In this document: one piece after another, positions 1,141 to 26,308 of the stretch
Layout: every line of letters begins with the position of its first letter
Numbering within the stretch: the stretch's first letter is position 1
IMG/VR virus record: IMGVR_UViG_3300024346_000003
Direction: 5' to 3' (one strand)
From: a virus
Taxonomy: Duplodnaviria > Caudoviricetes
Length of the DNA: 64,000 bases
Notes under the pieces: model-generated
What the model was told of the DNA's origin: nothing
Databases searched by the model: none
The model's input: only the letters and a program-made list of their open reading frames with translations
Made by a program: the position numbers and the translations under genes

Positions 1141-1144
1141 ATTG

Positions 1145-1228
1145 TACGGATAGTCGGACTCGAACCGACAATCATATTTCAGAACACGGGTCTAAGCCGT
1201 GCGGGTCTACCAATTCCCCCATATCCGC
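1145..1228 (-). tRNA. trnL: tRNA-Leu(TAG)
   Basis: GCGGATA/TATCCGT acceptor, CACGG-CTTAGAC-CCGTG anticodon arm, long variable arm, TTCGAGT T-loop. Confidence 0.93.
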
Positions 1229-1233
1229 ATTTA

Positions 1234-1334
1234 AGATTGAAGTAGGTCTCAAACCTACACAGTAGCCTTTGTTAGACCTCTAATGCTACCACCCCAGGTT
1301 ATCGAGGCATGTCTATCAATTCCATCATTCAATC
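1234..1334 (-). pseudogene. Degenerate class II tRNA-like element with extended variable arm
   Basis: GATTGAA/TTCAATC acceptor, Leu-like D-arm, T-arm GTAGG-TTTGAGA-CCTAC; anticodon arm imperfect. Confidence 0.55.
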
Positions 1335-1336
1335 TA

Positions 1337-1419
1337 TGGTAGTCCGAGAGGGACTCGAACCCTCACTCCGAAGAACTGCGGCTTAAACACAGCGTGTATA
1401 CCAATTTCACCATCGGACC
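1337..1419 (-). tRNA. trnL: tRNA-Leu(TAA), encoded CCA
   Basis: CTGTG-TTTAAGC-CGCAG anticodon arm; ends GGACTACCA. Confidence 0.95.
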
Positions 1420-1465
1420 ATTTTGCACTTCCTACCCATCCATATCGTATAGTGCTAACCGCTAG

Positions 1466-1539
1466 TACACCCTGTAGGATTCGAACCTACGACCCTTCGG
1501 ATGTAAACCGAATGCTCTAACCAACTGAGCTAAGGATGT
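1466..1539 (-). tRNA. trnV: tRNA-Val(TAC)
   Basis: TTCGG-TTTACAT-CCGAA anticodon arm; canonical D and T arms. Confidence 0.95.
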
Positions 1540-1550
1540 ATATGGTAGGT

Positions 1551-1880
1551 TTAACCTACCTTTATAAATGTTTCATTCTTTATGGCTTTACTAATCCATC
1601 TGTTAAGCTCGGAGCCTCTCATTTCACTGTAGAAAGTAGTTGTTCCAAGGTCTTCAGACAATGTTGTGACCACATCTGACTCCTTAACTTCTGCATCAAC
1701 TTCTAAAGTTGATACATGATATCTAACCTTTACATCAACTGTTGAAATTGGAAACTCGTATATATCACCAAACACTTCAATGTTGTAATACAAGTTACCA
1801 GCAATATAGTGACTAAACTTAGCCATTGCTTTTGACTTAAATAAGTCTTTTTTTATTTCAGTTTCATTAAACATAACCAT
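1551..1880 (-). CDS. Hypothetical phage protein within tRNA array 1
   Basis: 109-aa ORF, co-oriented. Confidence 0.75.
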   Translation of the reverse strand: MVMFNETEIKKDLFKSKAMAKFSHYIAGNLYYNIEVFGDIYEFPISTVDVKVRYHVSTLEVDAEVKESDVVTTLSEDLGTTTFYSEMRGSELNRWISKAIKNETFIKVG

Positions 1881-2025
1881 TTTTTTTTCTTCGTTTAAAG
1901 AGTAACTTTATAGTATTTAAACTAATCTTATTATTTTTATCAGCTCTAACATGTCTAAAATTTTCATATGACCCTTTATATGTTCCCGTTAATACTACTT
2001 TCCCCTCATTATCTTTTCTTTCCAT
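1867..2025 (-). CDS. Small basic hypothetical protein (52 aa)
   Basis: Manual read MERKDNEGKVVLTGTYKGSY...; fills the gap between tRNA-Cys and the next ORF. Confidence 0.45.
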   Translation of the reverse strand: MERKDNEGKVVLTGTYKGSYENFRHVRADKNNKISLNTIKLLFKRRKKNGYV

Positions 2026-2039
2026 AATCTATCTTTTTG

Positions 2040-2112
2040 AGCTGGGAGAGGGATTTGAACCCCCGTATGTGGATTTGCAATCCACTGCCTAAAGCCACTC
2101 GACCATCCCAGC
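2040..2112 (-). tRNA. trnC: tRNA-Cys(GCA)
   Basis: GTGGA-TTGCAAA-TCCAC anticodon arm; U73 discriminator. Confidence 0.95.
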
Positions 2113-2118
2113 ATTAAA

Positions 2119-2151
2119 CAAAAAACCCGAAGTGACTAATCGCTTCGGGTT
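2119..2151 (-). terminator. Attenuator terminator of tRNA array 1
   Basis: AACCCGAAG-CGATTAGTCA-CTTCGGGTT plus T-run, ending about 7 nt before tRNA-Cys. Confidence 0.85.
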
Positions 2152-2180
2152 GTGAATATTGTTTATTTATTATTAAACTA

Positions 2181-2255
2181 TCAACACAGCCCGAAACTGA
2201 CTACCACTAAAAGTAGACATAAGTTAAGTACCAAAATGTTGTTAATTGTTTTCAT
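2181..2255 (-). CDS. Leader peptide 1, MKTINNILVLNLCLLLVVVSFGLC
   Basis: 24-codon ORF between promoter and terminator; codons 8-19 are 11/12 Leu/Val/Cys; its 3' end is complementary to the terminator 5' arm. Confidence 0.8.
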   Translation of the reverse strand: MKTINNILVLNLCLLLVVVSFGLC

Positions 2256-2289
2256 CGTATTAATTTTTTAATCGTTTTAATTAAATATA

Positions 2290-2324
2290 TGCAAATATAC
2301 TAAAAGTTTTTTAATTTGTCAAGT
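2290..2324 (-). promoter_or_regulatory. Bacteroidota-type promoter of tRNA array 1
   Basis: TTG(ACA)-N20-TATATTTG; nearly identical to 23427-23461. Confidence 0.8.
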
Positions 2325-19904: not shown

Positions 19905-20549
19905 CTAATTATTAAATAAATTAGTTTTAACTTTAAAATTTTCAGCTAATTCCATTATCTTATTTTGAATATCTTCTGGTAACTCATCAAATATTGAATC
20001 AATATCAATACTTTGACCATCTAATGTTTCAAATTTGTTTAATTGTTCATAATATCTAATGATATCACCAGAGGTTAGTTTGATTTTTTTAAACCTATCT
20101 TTGTTTGGTTGTGCTTGTAGTGGTTGTTGTTCTTTACCAGTAACATAAAGGATTTGATTTGATGTTTCAAAATCCTTTTTTCTCATAATGGTTTTACTGA
20201 TTAAATCTAACTCACCATTTTCCTTATCCCAACTTATAGTAAACGGGATATTAATATTTGTTGGGTTGTTTTTAAATACAGCCTCAAAACCATCTTTATA
20301 TTTAATTAACTGCTCTTTGTATTGTGAATAAATCTTTTTAAAGATATCCCTAAGTTCTTCAATTGTAATTTCCTTACCATTTCTAACATCATTCACCCTA
20401 TCCAAAAAATGTTTTGTAAATTCAATATCAACACCAACACTTTTAAATAAATTATCTAATTCAATTTCTAATTTACCAAGCTGAGATGATGTGACGTAAT
20501 CTTCTCTTAAAAGACTTTCCCTTAATAATTTTTTAATTAATGATTTCAT
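19905..20549 (-). CDS. Hypothetical protein with IKKLLRE-type leader
   Basis: 214-aa ORF, ATATTTAT motif upstream. Confidence 0.75.
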   Translation of the reverse strand: MKSLIKKLLRESLLREDYVTSSQLGKLEIELDNLFKSVGVDIEFTKHFLDRVNDVRNGKEITIEELRDIFKKIYSQYKEQLIKYKDGFEAVFKNNPTNINIPFTISWDKENGELDLISKTIMRKKDFETSNQILYVTGKEQQPLQAQPNKDRFKKIKLTSGDIIRYYEQLNKFETLDGQSIDIDSIFDELPEDIQNKIMELAENFKVKTNLFNN

Positions 20550-20599
20550 ATATTATAAATATCATTAAAAAATTAAAAATTTGACATATTAGTAAATAG

Positions 20600-20688
20600 T
20601 AGAGAAGATGGGATTCGAACCCATGGGACCTTATTAAAGGTCCACCACATTAGCAGTGTGGCCACTTAAACCTCTCGTGCACCTCTCT
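20600..20688 (-). tRNA. trnS: tRNA-Ser(GCT)
   Basis: CCACA-CTGCTAA-TGTGG anticodon arm; long variable arm. Confidence 0.92.
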
Positions 20689-20694
20689 ATATTG

Positions 20695-20767
20695 TACCCC
20701 TAGAGGGATTCTAACCCCCATTCTAGCCTTAGAAGGGCCATGTCCTATACAGTTGAACGATAGGGGC
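20695..20767 (-). tRNA. trnR: tRNA-Arg(TCT), with D- and T-loop deviations
   Basis: TGGCC-CTTCTAA-GGCTA; T-loop TTAGAAT. Confidence 0.8.
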
Positions 20768-20775
20768 GTGTATTG

Positions 20776-20848
20776 TACCCTCGACTGGATTCGAACCAGT
20801 ATTTTTGGTTTCGTAGACCAATGTTCTAATCCATTGAACTACAAGGGC
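20776..20848 (-). tRNA. trnR: tRNA-Arg(ACG)
   Basis: TTGGT-CTACGAA-ACCAA. Confidence 0.93.
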
Positions 20849-21030
20849 ATATTGTTATAATAAGAGTATAAACTGATATAAAACACACCAACCGTATCGT
20901 ATTTATATTCACCGTTTTTATTTGGTGGTTCAATCGCAACAATAGGATAATTCTCACCTAGTATTTTTTGATATTCCATAAATTGATTGTCCGTCTTTGG
21001 TATTGACATTTTTGTGTATAATAAATCCAT
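20839..21030 (-). CDS. Small hypothetical protein (63 aa) in tRNA array 2
   Basis: Start MDLLYTK at 21030; the track start at 21081 lies inside a tRNA. Confidence 0.55.
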   Translation of the reverse strand: MDLLYTKMSIPKTDNQFMEYQKILGENYPIVAIEPPNKNGEYKYDTVGVFYISLYSYYNNMPL

Positions 21031-21044
21031 AATATTTAAATTAG

Positions 21045-21114
21045 TACCGCCTGTGAGGTTCGAACTCACCTTTCCATCCATATGAGGGATAGTTGTACTC
21101 CACTGACTAGCGGC
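21045..21114 (-). tRNA. tRNA-CAT (Met, Ile2 or fMet), weak D-arm
   Basis: ATCC-CTCATAT-GGAT anticodon arm; canonical T-arm; short irregular D region. Confidence 0.7.
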
Positions 21115-21116
21115 AT

Positions 21117-21227
21117 TTTGGTCGATGTCTAGAATCTTTAACCTCCTTTCTTGGCAAGGTCTCCATCATGGGTTCCGTTGATTGATTCATCTTTATAACC
21201 CCATACGGAACAAGCGGGGTAACCAAA
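21117..21227 (-). ncRNA. Unassigned pseudoknotted structured RNA
   Basis: Closing stem TTTGGTT/GACCAAA; ACCCC/GGGGT hairpin whose loop GTTCCGT pairs with downstream ACGGAAC; further stems. Confidence 0.55.
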
Positions 21228-21235
21228 TTATTTTG

Positions 21236-21309
21236 CTCTTCAGGAGGGATTCGAACCCCCAACCCATCGGTTAACAACCGATTGCTCTGACCATTATAGC
21301 TACCGAAGA
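21236..21309 (-). tRNA. trnN: tRNA-Asn(GTT), second copy
   Basis: ATCGG-TTGTTAA-CCGAT; G73. Confidence 0.93.
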
Positions 21310-21385
21310 ATAAAAAAGTTTAGAGGCTTTGGGTTAGACACGCCTCAATATTACATGAGAGACCCCATAGATTGCATAAACTTTG

Positions 21386-21462
21386 TACAGAAGGTGAGAT
21401 TCGAACTCACATGTGACCAACTACCCTTTCTACAAGATATAAGCTTGAGGGGATACATCTGC
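21386..21462 (-). ncRNA. D-armless tRNA-like RNA with TAT anticodon-position triplet
   Basis: Acceptor GCAGATG/CTTCTGT, canonical T-arm, CAAG-CTTATAT-CTTG arm extended by CCCT/AGGG; no D-arm. Confidence 0.65.
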
Positions 21463-21465
21463 ATT

Positions 21466-21516
21466 TTTATAAGTGGCCAAAACTATGTTTTTTAGTGAGT
21501 TTTGGCCACTTATAAA
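21466..21516. repeat. Perfect inverted repeat (14-bp core, 19 bp with flanks)
   Basis: AAGTGGCCAAAACT ... AGTTTTGGCCACTT. Confidence 0.85.
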
Positions 21517-21519
21517 TTG

Positions 21520-21561
21520 TAGGAAACACGGGACTCGAACCCATAACCTTTCACGTATAAA
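21520..21561 (-). pseudogene. 3' half of interrupted tRNA-Ile(TAT)
   Basis: TTTATAC-GTGAA-AGGTT-ATGGG-TTCGAGT-CCCGT-GTTTCCT-A. Confidence 0.8.
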
Positions 21562-21568
21562 TATTTAG

Positions 21569-21640
21569 TAGGCATGTCGAGATTCGAACTCGAAATACAA
21601 CAGTATCAGTGTTGCGTGATAACCATTTCACTACACGCCT
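21569..21640 (-). tRNA. trnI: tRNA-Ile(GAT)
   Basis: CAACA-CTGATAC-TGTTG; acceptor AGGCGTG/CATGCCT; A73. Confidence 0.88.
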
Positions 21641-22208
21641 ATTTATTTAATTCTTCATGTATTTCTCTATGACAATTTGCGCAGACCATAATACATTTGT
21701 CTAATTCTAGTTTTATCTTTTCCCATGATAACACTGAGTAGGAACCAATTCCAAAATCTTTTTCGTTTGGGTCTAAATGATGAAATTCTAACGCTGAATT
21801 ACATCTATCATACCCACATTTTTGACAACAACCACCTTTATATTCAATAGCTTTTTCTTTTAACTTTTGACGAAAGTTTTTAACTTTTTGATAATTTCTA
21901 ATTTTTAACTCTTCATCGTTTAATTTAACATACTTATTTTCAGTATGTTTAATTATTGTTGATTTACCTAGATTAAATTTAACCATACATTCTTCAATGG
22001 TGTGGTCTTTATAGAAGCTATTTAATTCTTCTATTTCAATCTTTGTTAATTTAGCTCTTTGTTTACTAACAAAATTACCACCTAAATTATTATTGTTGCA
22101 ATGAAATGAAACGGTGCTTTTTGAACAATTCAATAGTTCACTTATTTCATTATAATTTTTACCAGAGTTTCTCAACTCTAGAATACTTTCTTTTAAACTT
22201 GTAGTCAT
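21639..22208 (-). mobile_element. HNH endonuclease with N-terminal HTH
   Basis: CQKCGY...LEFHHLDP...KCIMVCANCHREIH. Confidence 0.9.
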
Positions 22209-22280
22209 ATCAATATCTTTTATAGTTATAAATATACTACAAGTTCTAAAAAAGTCAATAGGTGCTAATTTTTATTTTTT

Positions 22281-22307
22281 TGCTCTAACCAGTTGAGCTA
22301 GCTTCCT
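22281..22307 (-). pseudogene. 5' half of interrupted tRNA-Ile(TAT)
   Basis: AGGAAGC-TA-GCTC-AACTGGTTA-GAGC-A; AGGAAGC pairs with GTTTCCT of the 3' half. Confidence 0.8.
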
Positions 22308-22326
22308 ATTGTGAGTGGAAGCCCCA

Positions 22327-22563
22327 TTACTTCCACTTTGTTTTTCTGTTGTGTTTCCACGTTTTGTATTCTCGCCATTTATGATTTGGTAGCTTACGGT
22401 GGCTCCAATTCCACCCATAATCCCATATGTTATAACCATAAATGTTCATCCATCGAATACAATTGTATTCTTTAGAAGTTTTTGCTTTGTTCAGTTTTGC
22501 TCTGTTAATTTTTTTACTCATAATGTTGTGAGTCTGTGAATAGCAGACCTTACAACATATCAA
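22327..22563 (-). CDS. Small basic, Trp-rich hypothetical protein (start uncertain)
   Basis: ORF track; co-oriented within the array. Confidence 0.55.
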   Translation of the reverse strand: MICCKVCYSQTHNIMSKKINRAKLNKAKTSKEYNCIRWMNIYGYNIWDYGWNWSHRKLPNHKWREYKTWKHNRKTKWK

Positions 22564-22591
22564 ATTCCTTTTTCATAAATTTTAAATTTTG

Positions 22592-22678
22592 AGGAGGGGG
22601 TGGGACTCGAACCCACACACCACTAGGGCCTACGGTTTTCAAAACCGCCAAGCTTAGACCGACTGCTCTTACCCCTCC
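22592..22678 (-). tRNA. trnS: tRNA-Ser(TGA)
   Basis: GCGGT-TTTGAAA-ACCGT; long variable arm. Confidence 0.9.
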
Positions 22679-22689
22679 ATTTTTAAATA

Positions 22690-22784
22690 ATAAGGCTACA
22701 GCCTTATAATGTTATAATATAAGGCTACAGCCTTATAACCTTATAACGTTATAATATAAGGTTATAACCTTATAACGTTATATT
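22690..22784. repeat. Palindromic modular tandem repeat
   Basis: ATAAGGCTACAGCCTTAT twice and CCTTATAACGTTATA twice. Confidence 0.8.
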
Positions 22785-22786
22785 AG

Positions 22787-22857
22787 CACGACTAGTAGGA
22801 TTCGAACCCACATCAAGGGATTTGGAATCCCGTATGCTACCATTGCACCATAGTCGT
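22787..22857 (-). tRNA. trnW: tRNA-Trp(CCA)
   Basis: GGGA-TTCCAAA-TCCC; acceptor ACGACTA/TAGTCGT; G73. Confidence 0.92.
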
Positions 22858-22893
22858 GTATTTTACTTACCAATATGTCAAAGAACCTTTGTT

Positions 22894-22977
22894 GGTGTCT
22901 GACGGGAATTGAACCCGCATGTCGTAAGACCCCTGTTTCACAGACAGGTGTGGCAAACTAATATCCACCTCAGACAC
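22894..22977 (-). tRNA. trnH: tRNA-His(GTG), atypical (long variable arm)
   Basis: CCTGT-CTGTGAA-ACAGG; C73; GTC-TTAC-GAC extra arm. Confidence 0.75.
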
Positions 22978-22979
22978 AG

Positions 22980-23054
22980 CTCCCCAGACAGGATTCGAAC
23001 CTGTAACCCCTCGATTAACAGTCGAGTGCTCTAACCAGTTGTAGCTACTGGGGA
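22980..23054 (-). tRNA. trnN: tRNA-Asn(GTT)
   Basis: CTCGA-CTGTTAA-TCGAG; G73. Confidence 0.95.
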
Positions 23055-23224
23055 ATGTTAATGGTGACAAATATTGTTACTTTGCCACCCTTCTTTTCAA
23101 ATTTAAGATTACCGTTGTAACCCATTTCTTTTGCTTTCGCATTGTATTCGTCATAAATCTTATCGAAGTCCTTTTGGAAGTCTGAGACTTTTACAGTTCC
23201 TAATGTTCTTACTAATTTTTCCAT
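23045..23224 (-). CDS. Small hypothetical protein (59 aa), first gene after attenuator 2
   Basis: Start MEKLVRTL at 23224; the longer track start runs through the terminator. Confidence 0.65.
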   Translation of the reverse strand: MEKLVRTLGTVKVSDFQKDFDKIYDEYNAKAKEMGYNGNLKFEKKGGKVTIFVTINIPQ

Positions 23225-23238
23225 AATTTTTATGACAT

Positions 23239-23271
23239 AAAAAAACCCAACTCTATTTCTAGGTCGGGTTT
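23239..23271 (-). terminator. Attenuator terminator of tRNA array 2
   Basis: AACCCGAC-CTA-GAAA-TAG-A-GTTGGGTT plus T-run. Confidence 0.85.
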
Positions 23272-23294
23272 CTGATTTTATTAAATTCTTATTT

Positions 23295-23393
23295 TTAGAA
23301 CTCAATGATATCGCTGAACATACCAGACCTAGTTTGTAGACTATTACGTCTCCAATTACTAATCGACATTCTATGTATGTTATTTGTTATCAT
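23295..23393 (-). CDS. Leader peptide 2, MITNNIHRMSISNWRRNSLQTRSGMFSDIIEF
   Basis: 32-codon ORF; codons 4-18 are all Asn/Ile/His/Arg/Met/Ser/Trp; its CTAGGTC is complementary to terminator GACCTAG. Confidence 0.82.
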   Translation of the reverse strand: MITNNIHRMSISNWRRNSLQTRSGMFSDIIEF

Positions 23394-23426
23394 TGTGTTT
23401 TTTTATTCGTGTATTAATTAAATATA

Positions 23427-23461
23427 TGCAAATATACTAAAAGTTTTTTTATTTGTCAAGT
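23427..23461 (-). promoter_or_regulatory. Bacteroidota-type promoter of tRNA array 2
   Basis: TTG(ACA)-N20-TATATTTG. Confidence 0.8.
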
Positions 23462-23490
23462 ATTTTTAATTTTTATTTTAATTTTTTTTA

Positions 23491-24417
23491 TTAATCACCA
23501 TCTGGACCGTCATCTTTTAGTCTACCCCAAAGTTCGTTAGAAATATCATTTTCAAAATTTTCAACCGATTTAACGACATTCGGTATTGCTATTTTTTTCA
23601 TTTCATCAGTTAACTTATATTCTTGTCCACTAGTACAATCAATATATTTAATTTCTATGATTTTCTCTAGTGCAAACTCTGCTTCTGGATATTCTTCTGG
23701 ACTACCCCCATGATAACCCCACGATGCTGCCCTATATGAACCAGTAATTTTAAAATAAAAAGTAACAAGAGCTTTTAAATAGAAACAACTACTATCTGTT
23801 TCAGTATAGGTATATTCAATTTCTAATTCTGAATCGTCATAACCGTGGTTAAATTCTACAATATTATAACTATCCATTTCAAATTGTTCTAATTTAAAAA
23901 TTTCTTCTGGAATAAACATTTGTTCGTTTCCATCTTCACTTAATTCGTTATATTGTAAATCAGTTGGTTCGATTTCTGGGTTGATACCATATTGTTGTTT
24001 TCTATCTTCTAATTCCCAATCTTCATTATCATTTTCACTCAAACTTGAAGTCCCATTTATTATATTGACAACAATATTCGCTTTTTTAATCGCCCCTTCA
24101 ATATTACCCGCTTCTAAAAATTCACTAACTGAGTTAATACCACCATCAAATACACCACCATAACCATAAGCGAATTGGTTATCGAATTCCTCGAATCTTT
24201 TACCCATTTTTATTTCAAGCATTGTGTTAATTAACTCTTTAGCAACCCTTTCATAATCACCATTGTATTCAGTCATCCAAGATTGTATTTTAGATTCGTT
24301 ATCAGCGGCTAATCCACCACTAATATCTTCACTAATCAATCCCTTAGATTGTAGATATCTTTGTTCAGCTAATTTATTAGCTTTTCTAATATTATCTTTT
24401 TTATCAAATCTTCTCAT
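23491..24417 (-). CDS. Acidic protein with shared MRRFDK leader (putative virion/internal protein)
   Basis: Shares its first ~30 aa with the two upstream ORFs. Confidence 0.8.
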   Translation of the reverse strand: MRRFDKKDNIRKANKLAEQRYLQSKGLISEDISGGLAADNESKIQSWMTEYNGDYERVAKELINTMLEIKMGKRFEEFDNQFAYGYGGVFDGGINSVSEFLEAGNIEGAIKKANIVVNIINGTSSLSENDNEDWELEDRKQQYGINPEIEPTDLQYNELSEDGNEQMFIPEEIFKLEQFEMDSYNIVEFNHGYDDSELEIEYTYTETDSSCFYLKALVTFYFKITGSYRAASWGYHGGSPEEYPEAEFALEKIIEIKYIDCTSGQEYKLTDEMKKIAIPNVVKSVENFENDISNELWGRLKDDGPDGD

Positions 24418-24427
24418 TTTTGTATTT

Positions 24428-25423
24428 TTAATTTGGATTTATAAATTCAGCAAATTCGCCAGGATTTAAACCAGCTGGTGCTACATTTTTATTTAAGTAA
24501 GAGAATTTTTTATTTTGACCATCAATTTGCATAGTACATCTAATATAAGAGATTTTACTTAAATCCAAAGATTTGAATTCATATGCATTTTCTAGTGCAA
24601 ATATTTCTTGAGCCGCTTCTTGGTTTTCAATATCCAATAATCTTTTAGGCATTTTAGCACTGTATGATTTAGGTGATAAACTAAAAACAAAATTAACTTC
24701 TTCTGGTGTTAGTTCAGCTATATCACCTTGGTAGTTTAAGAAATATTTAGTTTCACCTTTTTTAACCCCAACTTTTTTAGCATATATTGCCAATCTTTTT
24801 GTTTCAGTACCTTGGTGTTGTTGGAATGGTGTTCCCATAACTTCTTCCCATCCACTACCTCTTTTATCATTCGTATCGATTTCACCACCATCTGGCCATT
24901 GTAAACCATGTTTATCATAGGCACTTTTAACTTCAGCATCTTTATCAGCTTTATTTTTAATATTACCCCACTGTATAGTAAAACTTTTAGTTGTGTATAC
25001 TTTAGATGGTATTTTAACACCACCTTCTGTTTTAGCAGCAAATGGACTTTTAAAATTTTTACCAGCACCTTTATTTTTAGTCCAATCCTCTGAAGATATC
25101 ATATTTGTAAAAGCTGGGTTGTTTAATTTTCTAGCAATATCTTCCAAACCTTGCATATCTTCATTTTTAACTGTAACACTTAAGTCAGCATTATTCACAT
25201 ACCCAACAGTCATAAACCAACTATTATTTGGTTGGTATTTTGAAAACATTTTAAGTAATGTTTCAACATTATCAGTTACATCACCAAAAAACTCAGACAT
25301 TGAAGTTCTTTCAACTTCATTAAGTTCATCATTTTCATTAATTAAACCCTTAGATTGTAGATATCTTTGCTCAGCTAATAAATTAACTTTTCTAATGTTA
25401 TCGTTTTTATCAAATCTTCTCAT
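24428..25423 (-). CDS. Protein with shared MRRFDK leader
   Basis: Same leader, unrelated body. Confidence 0.8.
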   Translation of the reverse strand: MRRFDKNDNIRKVNLLAEQRYLQSKGLINENDELNEVERTSMSEFFGDVTDNVETLLKMFSKYQPNNSWFMTVGYVNNADLSVTVKNEDMQGLEDIARKLNNPAFTNMISSEDWTKNKGAGKNFKSPFAAKTEGGVKIPSKVYTTKSFTIQWGNIKNKADKDAEVKSAYDKHGLQWPDGGEIDTNDKRGSGWEEVMGTPFQQHQGTETKRLAIYAKKVGVKKGETKYFLNYQGDIAELTPEEVNFVFSLSPKSYSAKMPKRLLDIENQEAAQEIFALENAYEFKSLDLSKISYIRCTMQIDGQNKKFSYLNKNVAPAGLNPGEFAEFINPN

Positions 25424-25435
25424 TTTATTTTTTAT

Positions 25436-26308
25436 TTACCATGTTTTATACATTGTTAATTCGTACCTACCACTAGGCATTCTGTAAATTGATACACGTA
25501 TATATCTATTAGCTTCATTACCTCTTTTATCCAGGATTGGTTCTCCATTCTGTAATAATGGGATATTTGCTGACTTCTCAGTTTCATATGATATCCCACC
25601 AGTACCAAAATTAGTCCAAATTGTCTGCTCATCAACTTCAAACCCTAATTGCGCTGCTTTTTGTCTAACAGCATCCAATACTTCACTTAAAGTTTCAAAG
25701 TATGTATCATTACCATCTTCATGTAAACTACTCTGAGCACCCTTAACAATAGAATCAGCAAAACTTGGTTTACTAAATTGACTTTCTACATTATCTTCAC
25801 TTAATCCGTAATTATGTTTGTATGAATCATAATCTTCTTGATTATTCCACGAATCCCACATATCATTCATATTCTTATCTTCTTTATCGGTCCATTCTTG
25901 ATTTGGGTGATTCATGTTTGATTTAAGCATAACAACATTATTGTTATCCATTTTTGATTGTTCAGCGAATGTTGTTAATTTTTTCAATAATTCAATTTCT
26001 CTTTGGTAATCAAATGAGGTTAAATCACTGGCACCTTCAATAGCATCTTGAAGACCTATTTTAGCTGTTTGTATCCCATTAATTAATTCAGAAAGAGATA
26101 TTTCCTCATCTTCCCTAATGTCAAAACCAAATTTATAAAGAATACCATAATCATCATAACCTATTTCAATTATTGGACTATTTGCTGATGGTCTATCAGC
26201 ATATTGTAGCGTTAAATCTTCACTAATTAAACCTTTAGATTGTAGATATCTTTGTTCAGCTAATAAATTAGCTTTTCTAATGTTATCTTTTTTATCAAAT
26301 CTTCTCAT
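25436..26308 (-). CDS. Protein with shared MRRFDK leader
   Basis: Same leader, unrelated body. Confidence 0.8.
   Translation of the reverse strand: MRRFDKKDNIRKANLLAEQRYLQSKGLISEDLTLQYADRPSANSPIIEIGYDDYGILYKFGFDIREDEEISLSELINGIQTAKIGLQDAIEGASDLTSFDYQREIELLKKLTTFAEQSKMDNNNVVMLKSNMNHPNQEWTDKEDKNMNDMWDSWNNQEDYDSYKHNYGLSEDNVESQFSKPSFADSIVKGAQSSLHEDGNDTYFETLSEVLDAVRQKAAQLGFEVDEQTIWTNFGTGGISYETEKSANIPLLQNGEPILDKRGNEANRYIRVSIYRMPSGRYELTMYKTW

Follow-up and report, generated by a model that had tools for sequence, protein, structure and literature searches.

A short reading frame written in the codons of the tRNAs behind it: a probable leader-peptide attenuator of a phage tRNA operon

Why should a phage place a short reading frame and a terminator between a promoter and its own tRNA genes? 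The question is raised by the 64,000-nucleotide (nt) stretch of DNA IMGVR_UViG_3300024346_000003 (hereafter, the window), which belongs to a large phage of Bacteroidota, has a G+C content of 29.5% and carries on its minus strand a tRNA array for Asn, His, Trp, Ser, Ile, Met and Arg. Growth rate and the stringent response, not gene-specific sensors, are held to govern tRNA genes, and phage tRNA arrays are usually read as static codon-usage supplements or as spares against tRNA-cleaving defences. The element ahead of this array, which we call the D unit, has the order promoter, A-rich leader, 32-codon open reading frame (ORF), AT-rich spacer, terminator, 59-codon ORF and tRNA genes. It is probably a ribosome-mediated (leader-peptide) transcription attenuator controlling the tRNA operon, because all the sequence features that define such an element are present, from the promoter, the translatable short ORF and its regulatory codons to the intrinsic terminator and the mutually exclusive antiterminator, and because the same design recurs in four paralogous classes, named A to D, and in dozens of relatives. 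The parts of the unit are the following.

23429-23460, minus strand: promoter of Bacteroidota sigma-A type, cTTGaca (TTG at 23459-23457), 20-nt spacer and TATATTTG (23436-23429)
23394-23428, minus strand: A-rich 5′ leader without Shine-Dalgarno sequence, GCATATATTTAATTAATACACGAATAAAAAAACACA
23295-23393, minus strand: leader ORF, 32 codons and stop, MITNNIHRMSISNWRRNSLQTRSGMFSDIIEF
23340-23384, minus strand: control codons 4-18, all 15 encoding Asn, His, Trp, Ser, Ile, Met or Arg
23370-23381, minus strand: region 1, AACATACATAGA, codons 5-8, paired with TCTGGTATGTT of region 2 in the minimum free energy fold
23315-23333, minus strand: region 2, putative antiterminator 5′ strand, ACTAGGTCTGGTATGTTCA, codons 21-27, pairing with the terminator 5′ arm
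23239-23271, minus strand: predicted intrinsic terminator (regions 3 and 4), G+C-rich hairpin AAACCCGACCTAG, loop, TAGAGTTGGGTTT and T run, free energy (dG) -12.9
23045-23224, minus strand: 59-codon ORF that separates the terminator from the first tRNA and whose stop overlaps tRNA-Asn, conserved in close relatives
23054-20599, minus strand: D tRNA array, whole

The promoter is built on the Bacteroidota sigma-A pattern (TTG ... TAnnTTTG), as are those of the relatives, and would start transcription near 23423. Absence of a Shine-Dalgarno sequence and an A-rich start context are typical of Bacteroidota. A 47-nt block of promoter and 5′ untranslated region (23460-23414) differs by one base from the block at 2323-2277, which precedes another tRNA array of the window (array 1); an earlier note on this DNA had rightly called the two promoters nearly identical. 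Between 23500 and 20500 the leader promoter is the sole complete promoter motif on the minus strand, except for that of an HNH cassette inserted in the array, and no full promoter motif was found between the terminator and tRNA-Asn in the D array of the window.

The leader peptide contains one Leu and neither Val nor Cys. Its codons 4-18 read AAT AAC ATA CAT AGA ATG TCG ATT AGT AAT TGG AGA CGT AAT AGT, and their match with the array is mutual: the array holds an anticodon for each of these codons, and the leader holds a codon for each anticodon, sampling both Arg boxes and both Ser boxes plus ATA, ATT and ATG. The seven amino acids (set D) make up 31.5% of the proteome encoded by the long ORFs of the window. 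Against the window's own proteome usage, a 15-codon run of own-set residues in a 31-codon ORF has a probability of 3.6e-7, and the next-longest run for set D among 256 short ORFs of the window is 7. The earlier note had given the coordinates of the ORF and the terminator, the codon string, the pairing of region 2, the restriction of all 15 codons to seven amino acids, the single Leu without Val or Cys and the cognate codon for every array anticodon, and had proposed the chance calculation reported here; each of these statements stood on re-examination.

Conservation supports the view that the leader ORF is read as codons. Its frame, its start codon and a length of 30-33 codons from that start are kept in 24-26 distinct relatives. 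We regard the ORF as selected as codons because, in the D alignment, the ATG start is invariant and indels are multiples of three, because substitutions in the variable control columns stay within the set (19 of 21 residue types in class D and 18 of 21 in class A, for an expectation of about 31%), and because the C-terminal peptide sequence, unlike the control codons, drifts freely. CGT or CGC and AGA are both retained in the alignment, so that both Arg tRNAs are sampled, and likewise both Ser tRNAs; the rare codon TCG, which accounts for 3% of Ser codons, is invariant at Ser10.

The putative antiterminator 5′ strand starts directly at the end of the control-codon run, and across the leaders the last own-set codon of the run is at about position 19 and the first codon of region 2 at about 20-21. 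In the window, ACTAGGTCTGGT (23333-23322) pairs with ACCCGACCTAG in the terminator 5′ arm at 10 of 11 positions by hand count, and the extended duplex of ACTAGGTCTGGTATGTTCA with AGAAACCCGACCTAGA has a dG of -16.0 (RNAduplex). The ACATAC of codons 5-7 is nearly invariant in class D and complementary to the GTATG(T) of region 2, itself invariant or nearly so; the predicted pairing of region 1 with region 2 would act as a protector or pause hairpin, in an arrangement like that of trpL.

The same architecture is predicted in the relatives. All folded array leaders (25 promoter-linked and 29 of class D) have a strong terminator, with a dG of -10 to -20, before the first tRNA, and an antiterminator-type segment at codons ~18-27 pairs with the terminator 5′ arm with a dG of -7 to -20. 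The two strands show compensatory changes: CTAGGTC/GACCTAG in the window is replaced elsewhere by GTCGGGT/ACCCGAC, GGTCAAGG/CCTTGACC, GAGACG/CGTCTC (in the relative G002), GTAGCAGGT/ACCTGACTAC and TTGAGTC/GACTCAG. A MAFFT alignment of 26 D leaders analysed with RNAalifold did not recover even the terminator, because the terminator arms are out of register in the alignment, and a permutation test on duplexes and a gapless register test were therefore used instead. Within each class the segments pair better with their cognate terminator arms than with non-cognate ones, with permutation p values of 5e-5 for D (n = 25-26), 3e-4 for C, 0.03 for A and 0.04 for B, and the gapless count of pairs in a fixed register gives p = 2e-5.

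We then folded the nascent transcript, cutting the RNA before the terminator 3′ arm and masking a 30-nt ribosome footprint. In these folds the 5′ arm is sequestered with the ribosome at codons 1-17 and free with the ribosome at codon 18 or beyond. A stall anywhere in the control codons up to about codon 17 would thus leave the antiterminator strand free, which is the behaviour of an OR gate.

The D unit is one of four classes of leader, of which C and D are both present in the window and A and B were studied in relatives. Each is written in the amino acids of the array behind it, and the four combined span all 20 amino acids.

Class A: leader MRTTGTTYQPKQYTQGGKP..., set T/Y/Q/P/K/G, array Pro, Gln, Tyr, Thr, Gly, Lys
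Class B: leader ...FDFAFFAAEADE..., set F/D/A/E, array Phe, Glu, Asp, Ala (plus extras)
Class C: leader ...LVLNLCLLLVVV..., set L/V/C, array Cys, Val, Leu
Class D: leader of the window MITNNIHRMSISNWRRNSLQTRSGMFSDIIEF, set N/H/W/S/I/M/R, array Asn, His, Trp, Ser, Ile, Met, Arg
1144-2323, minus strand: class C unit of the window (array 1), promoter 2323-2277, leader MKTINNILVLNLCLLLVVVSFGLC at 2255-2181, terminator 2151-2120

The own-set runs are of 15 codons in D, 17 in A, 12 in B and 8 in C (where the core is 11/12), with probabilities of 4e-7, 2e-8, 3e-7 and 3e-6, respectively, and the matrix of leaders by arrays is diagonal. In array 1, tRNA-Cys begins 14 nt after the start of the T run and is followed by Val, Leu(TAA) and Leu(TAG); across the class C loci the first tRNA lies 14-21 nt from the start of the T run and can therefore be reached by read-through only.

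Relatives were collected along three routes. The promoter core was located at about 50 loci in viral and metagenome contigs, and at almost every viral locus a tRNA array lies directly downstream; 14 of the 15 viral contigs bearing the core carry it ahead of tRNA arrays. A scan for the D-leader motif, which is independent of the promoter, gave 29 distinct D leaders at 35 viral loci; many of the contigs are 190-370 kb long, and the arrays behind all of these leaders use the same seven amino acids in varying order and copy number. An unbiased search took all tRNAs of the four large, distant relatives G003-G006 and checked their arrays for the combination of terminator, short ORF and tRNAs; the same four classes stand before matching arrays in every one of these genomes. 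The complete 288-kb relative G002 has arrays A and D only, and leaders A and D only. Over all loci there are 48 distinct leaders. The earlier note had argued from array 1 that coincidence was unlikely, an argument that the four classes, the 48 leaders and the diagonal matrix bear out. It had also named relatives with different arrays that keep the same leader codons as a finding that would refute it; leaders and arrays agree in the relatives, with the exception of a single lineage described below (L052/L053).

One relative, L019 (IMGVR_UViG_3300032288_002237), has two tandem D-type leaders, MRTNNIHRMSISNWRRNSLQTRSGMFDIIEF followed by His and MRTINIHMISISNWRRNSIHTGQGMLNDIIEW followed by the remaining array, which looks like a duplication or recombination of attenuator units. 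A scan of bacterial and archaeal genomes for host-encoded counterparts gave only two low-GC phage contigs binned into metagenome-assembled genomes (MAGs), plus chance matches in GC-rich genomes. The two contigs, L102 (in a MAG labelled Methanobacterium sp.) and L105 (in a bin labelled Gammaproteobacteria), carry a D leader and array and are probably mis-binned phage contigs. A blastn comparison of the window with a phage collection gave matches to the HNH gene and the tRNAs only, and no close relative among the deposited phages.

How such a unit would work can be read from its anatomy. Host RNA polymerase would start at the Bacteroidota-type promoter and a ribosome on the 32-codon leader. With the aminoacyl-tRNAs for Asn, His, Trp, Ser, Ile, Met and Arg all ample, the ribosome would clear codons 4-18 and be on or past region 2 (codons 21-27) as the polymerase transcribes regions 3 and 4, so that the terminator hairpin would form and transcription would end before the tRNA genes. 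Were any one of about ten tRNA species scarce, by shortage in the host, by tRNA cleavage or while the phage tRNA is still insufficient, the ribosome would stall within codons 4-17, region 2 would be free to pair with the terminator 5′ arm, and the polymerase would read into the array. Charging of the new tRNAs would then end the stall and shut the gate. The serial testing of about ten isoacceptors would make the unit an OR gate, and the whole a homeostat of decoding capacity with negative feedback, because its products are the very tRNAs that it tests. Leader translation, stalling and regulated read-through are the parts of this model that we infer, and the tRNA set is probably made only when ribosomes decode those codons slowly. 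The earlier note had proposed a leader-peptide attenuator with OR logic, and the sequence features, the four classes, the compensatory changes and the nascent folding all support it. On the scale of the genome, we consider it rather likely that decoding capacity is kept in balance through four channels across a whole clade of large Bacteroidota phages: four paralogous leaders would divide the 20 amino acids, and each would keep testing whether its subset can be decoded in the cell and switch on only the tRNA operon that is needed.

Several observations weigh against regulated attenuation. Matching of synonymous codons to isoacceptors, taken alone, is not significant (P = 0.16 for D and 0.43 for C), and some arrays hold tRNAs for which the leader has no codon, such as His, Ser(AGA), Met or Gln in B arrays. 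The promoter of the HNH cassette (22258-22231) might drive the distal half of the D array independently. The L052/L053 lineage (VFQT/VFQS metagenome contigs, represented by two assemblies with 99.9% identity) carries a class C leader, with the same peptide as that of L002, before a broader, mixed array of Cys, Val(GAC), Asn, Ile, His, Arg, Arg, Trp, Phe, Cys and Leu; homology with the family ends ~95 nt past tRNA-Cys, and this is the sole exception found to the concordance of leader and array. Metatranscriptome contigs touching the locus come from relatives and are silent on RNA ends and regulation; one contig from a relatives' RNA run spans the 3′ side of the terminator, where carry-over of DNA is possible. 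The stop codon of class D lies 8 codons past region 2, so that a ribosome at the stop leaves region 2 uncovered, and in the model the 5′ arm is then pairable again. Finally, at equilibrium the full transcript favours the D and A terminators at any ribosome position, and with the ribosome mask a clear switch is obtained in class C only and a partial one in B and D. The switch must therefore be kinetic and co-transcriptional, and equilibrium folding of full leaders was set aside as a switch model in favour of the folding of nascent transcripts.

The same equilibrium folds, in which the D and A terminators form wherever the ribosome stands, would suit a constitutively leaky terminator that sets a low level of tRNA transcription, the ORF being kept for protection against Rho or RNase or for a small peptide of its own; the hydrophobic peptide of class C might be a membrane peptide. 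We find this account quite improbable, as it leaves unexplained why each of the four leaders draws its codons from the amino acids of the array that it precedes, why substitutions stay within the set while the C-terminal peptide drifts, and why a leader segment co-varies with the terminator 5′ arm. Another question is what the ribosome would report. Classical attenuators such as trpL and hisL respond to charging, the anatomy found here is identical to theirs, and sensing of aminoacyl-tRNA by itself cannot separate low tRNA from low charging; the unit could thus read amino-acid starvation and couple tRNA transcription to the nutritional state of the host. This seems unlikely, since extra tRNA does not relieve starvation and the loop would have no feedback logic, whereas the sampling of one codon per isoacceptor and a set of regulated genes that is exactly the set of sampled tRNAs fit the sensing of tRNA supply better. 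As to a chance ORF whose codon match is coincidental, AT-rich DNA is indeed rich in Asn, Ile and Ser codons, and nearly a third of the proteome falls in set D; this reading is already refuted by the probability calculated above for this leader alone, by the independent match of three other leaders and by the conservation of the pattern in all 48 distinct ones.

The array that the attenuator would control was annotated with ARAGORN and with Infernal (Rfam tRNA cut-off, 29 bits), which agree on Asn (twice), His, Trp, Ser(TGA), Ser(GCT), Ile(GAT), Arg(ACG) and Arg(TCT). Its elements, in the order of transcription, are the following.

22979-23054, minus strand: tRNA-Asn(GTT), both programs
22894-22977, minus strand: tRNA-His(GTG), both programs
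22786-22857, minus strand: tRNA-Trp(CCA), both programs
22591-22678, minus strand: tRNA-Ser(TGA), both programs
21520-22307, minus strand: native tRNA-Ile(GAT), interrupted, 5′ part 22307-22281 and 3′ part 21549-21520
within it, minus strand: insert with promoter (22258-22231), HTH-HNH endonuclease gene (22208-21639) and an intact, different tRNA-Ile(GAT) (21640-21568)
21386-21462, minus strand: atypical tRNA-like element with UAU anticodon, 27.4 bits against the cut-off of 29, conserved in L010 (~2080-2157)
21235-21309, minus strand: tRNA-Asn(GTT), second copy, both programs
21044-21117, minus strand: CAT-anticodon tRNA (Met or Ile2), ARAGORN only
20775-20848, minus strand: tRNA-Arg(ACG), both programs
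20694-20767, minus strand: tRNA-Arg(TCT), both programs
20599-20688, minus strand: tRNA-Ser(GCT), last of the array, both programs

Two entries of the earlier note are amended by this annotation. Its list passes from the terminator to the tRNAs and lacks the 59-codon ORF that lies between them. Its split tRNA-Ile(TAT) is in fact a tRNA-Ile(GAT) gene broken by the HNH cassette: the native gene is cut after the D arm, and its counterpart in L010 (1949-2023) is uninterrupted and is an Ile(GAT) gene. An intron-containing tRNA-Ile(TAT) was rejected on this ground and for want of any match to a group I intron model. The cassette, with its HTH-HNH homing endonuclease, appears to bring a replacement for the tRNA gene that it disrupts. 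The small ORFs within the array region gave no match in Pfam or PHROGs.

The UAU element has an anticodon loop CUUAUAU, 4 nt in place of the D arm and an 18-nt variable region, and may be a candidate reader of ATA; at its position in the arrays of relatives, ARAGORN makes calls of the type '???(ta)' and '???(ttaa)'. The CAT tRNA at 21044-21117 was not reported by Infernal with the Rfam tRNA model even at E <= 10 and may be degenerate or atypical. The D arrays of relatives contain one or two CAT tRNAs, presumably the elongator Met and Ile2.

Array-type promoters are also found on other stable-RNA genes. The window encodes a phage transfer-messenger RNA (tmRNA; 35273-34900, minus strand) with the tag ENFLANASIEVVSGEVALA and a similar TTG...TAGTATATTTG promoter directly upstream (35330-35300); in L039 an array-type promoter likewise stands ahead of the tmRNA, and in L018, L026, L032 and L047 one stands ahead of an initiator-like tRNA-Met that lacks a leader ORF. 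One promoter family thus serves the stable-RNA genes, of which the elongator arrays alone have leaders. An ORF-less transcript unit of ~120 nt (33895-33730, minus strand), with an array-type promoter and a terminator at its end, has similar counterparts in L047, L051 and L017; its hairpin motif AAAGAAAG..TT.CAGCAAA ... CTTTCTGA recurs upstream of leaderless tRNA-Met genes in relatives, and the unit looks like a candidate small-RNA family.

Directly upstream of the D unit, three tandem paralogous genes (23491-26308, minus strand) encode proteins of 308, 331 and 290 amino acids that start MRRFDK(K/N)DNIRK(A/V)N(K/L)LAEQRYLQSKGLI; the 308-residue paralogue, the only copy scanned, has no Pfam or PHROG match. 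Among the relatives, L087, L090, L097 and L098 (in G003-G006) have a tRNA with a CUA anticodon (ARAGORN 'Pyl(cta)', of amber-suppressor type) beside tRNA-Cys, outside the leader-controlled arrays, and one B array has a tRNA with a UCA anticodon ('SeC(tca)'). Suppression or recoding of stop codons is possible in these phages.

If the D unit and its paralogues act as proposed, the phage gauges the decoding of each tRNA group through the ribosome and supplies tRNAs on demand, compensating in real time for a mismatch with the host tRNA pool or for tRNA-cleaving defences, and tRNA genes would for the first time be known to be regulated through the translation of a codon-matched sensor. The reason for tRNA carriage by phages, the timing of tRNA expression and the response to tRNA-targeting immunity would become testable. 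Attenuation would be extended to Bacteroidota-type expression signals, conserved but unannotated small ORFs beside tRNA arrays would be explained, and compact natural sensors of tRNA availability with multiple inputs would become available to synthetic biology. In the openly accessible literature searched in full text, nothing was found on a control of tRNA genes by leader peptides or on the regulation of phage tRNA arrays.

Among known systems, the multivalent attenuators of enterobacteria, thrL (Thr and Ile), ilvL of ilvGMEDA (Leu, Val and Ile) and ivbL of ilvBN (Val and Leu), are the closest in layout and logic, since several amino acids per leader likewise give OR logic. The phage unit shares with leaders of the trpL, hisL, pheL and leuL type the promoter, short ORF, regulatory codons, 1:2, 2:3 and 3:4 hairpins and terminator. 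It differs in its Bacteroidota phage setting, with a TAnnTTTG promoter and no Shine-Dalgarno sequence, and in its scope, with seven amino acids and about ten isoacceptors in the D leader and 20 amino acids covered by four leaders. The enterobacterial attenuators control biosynthetic enzymes, whereas the phage unit would control the tRNAs themselves, so that the loop closes on decoding capacity. The pheM leader of E. coli pheST also attenuates part of the translation machinery according to the supply of the cognate aminoacyl-tRNA, but it is cellular, controls a synthetase and reads one amino acid instead of serving a whole tRNA array through many. T-box riboswitches of Firmicutes resemble the phage unit in that a terminator/antiterminator decision in a 5′ leader reports the state of specific tRNAs within the same decoding pathway; they bind uncharged tRNA through a specifier codon without translation, whereas the codons of the phage unit lie in a conserved ORF. 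Neither a T-box nor any Rfam leader family (Thr_leader, Leu_leader, His_leader, Trp_leader and others) was matched at the gathering score in the whole window, or at E <= 1 in 20400-23500. As the codons lie in a conserved ORF and no T-box was detected, the reader of the phage unit would be the ribosome. Other large phages resemble this one in having a near-complete tRNA set, and their arrays, viewed as constitutive supplements or as a counter-defence against host systems that deplete tRNAs, are as a rule taken to be genes with simple expression; in the present phage a putative codon-matched sensor stands before each array. The design would be a classical mechanism put to use on regulated genes of a new class, at an unprecedented scale that takes in many amino acids and partitions them across the genome.

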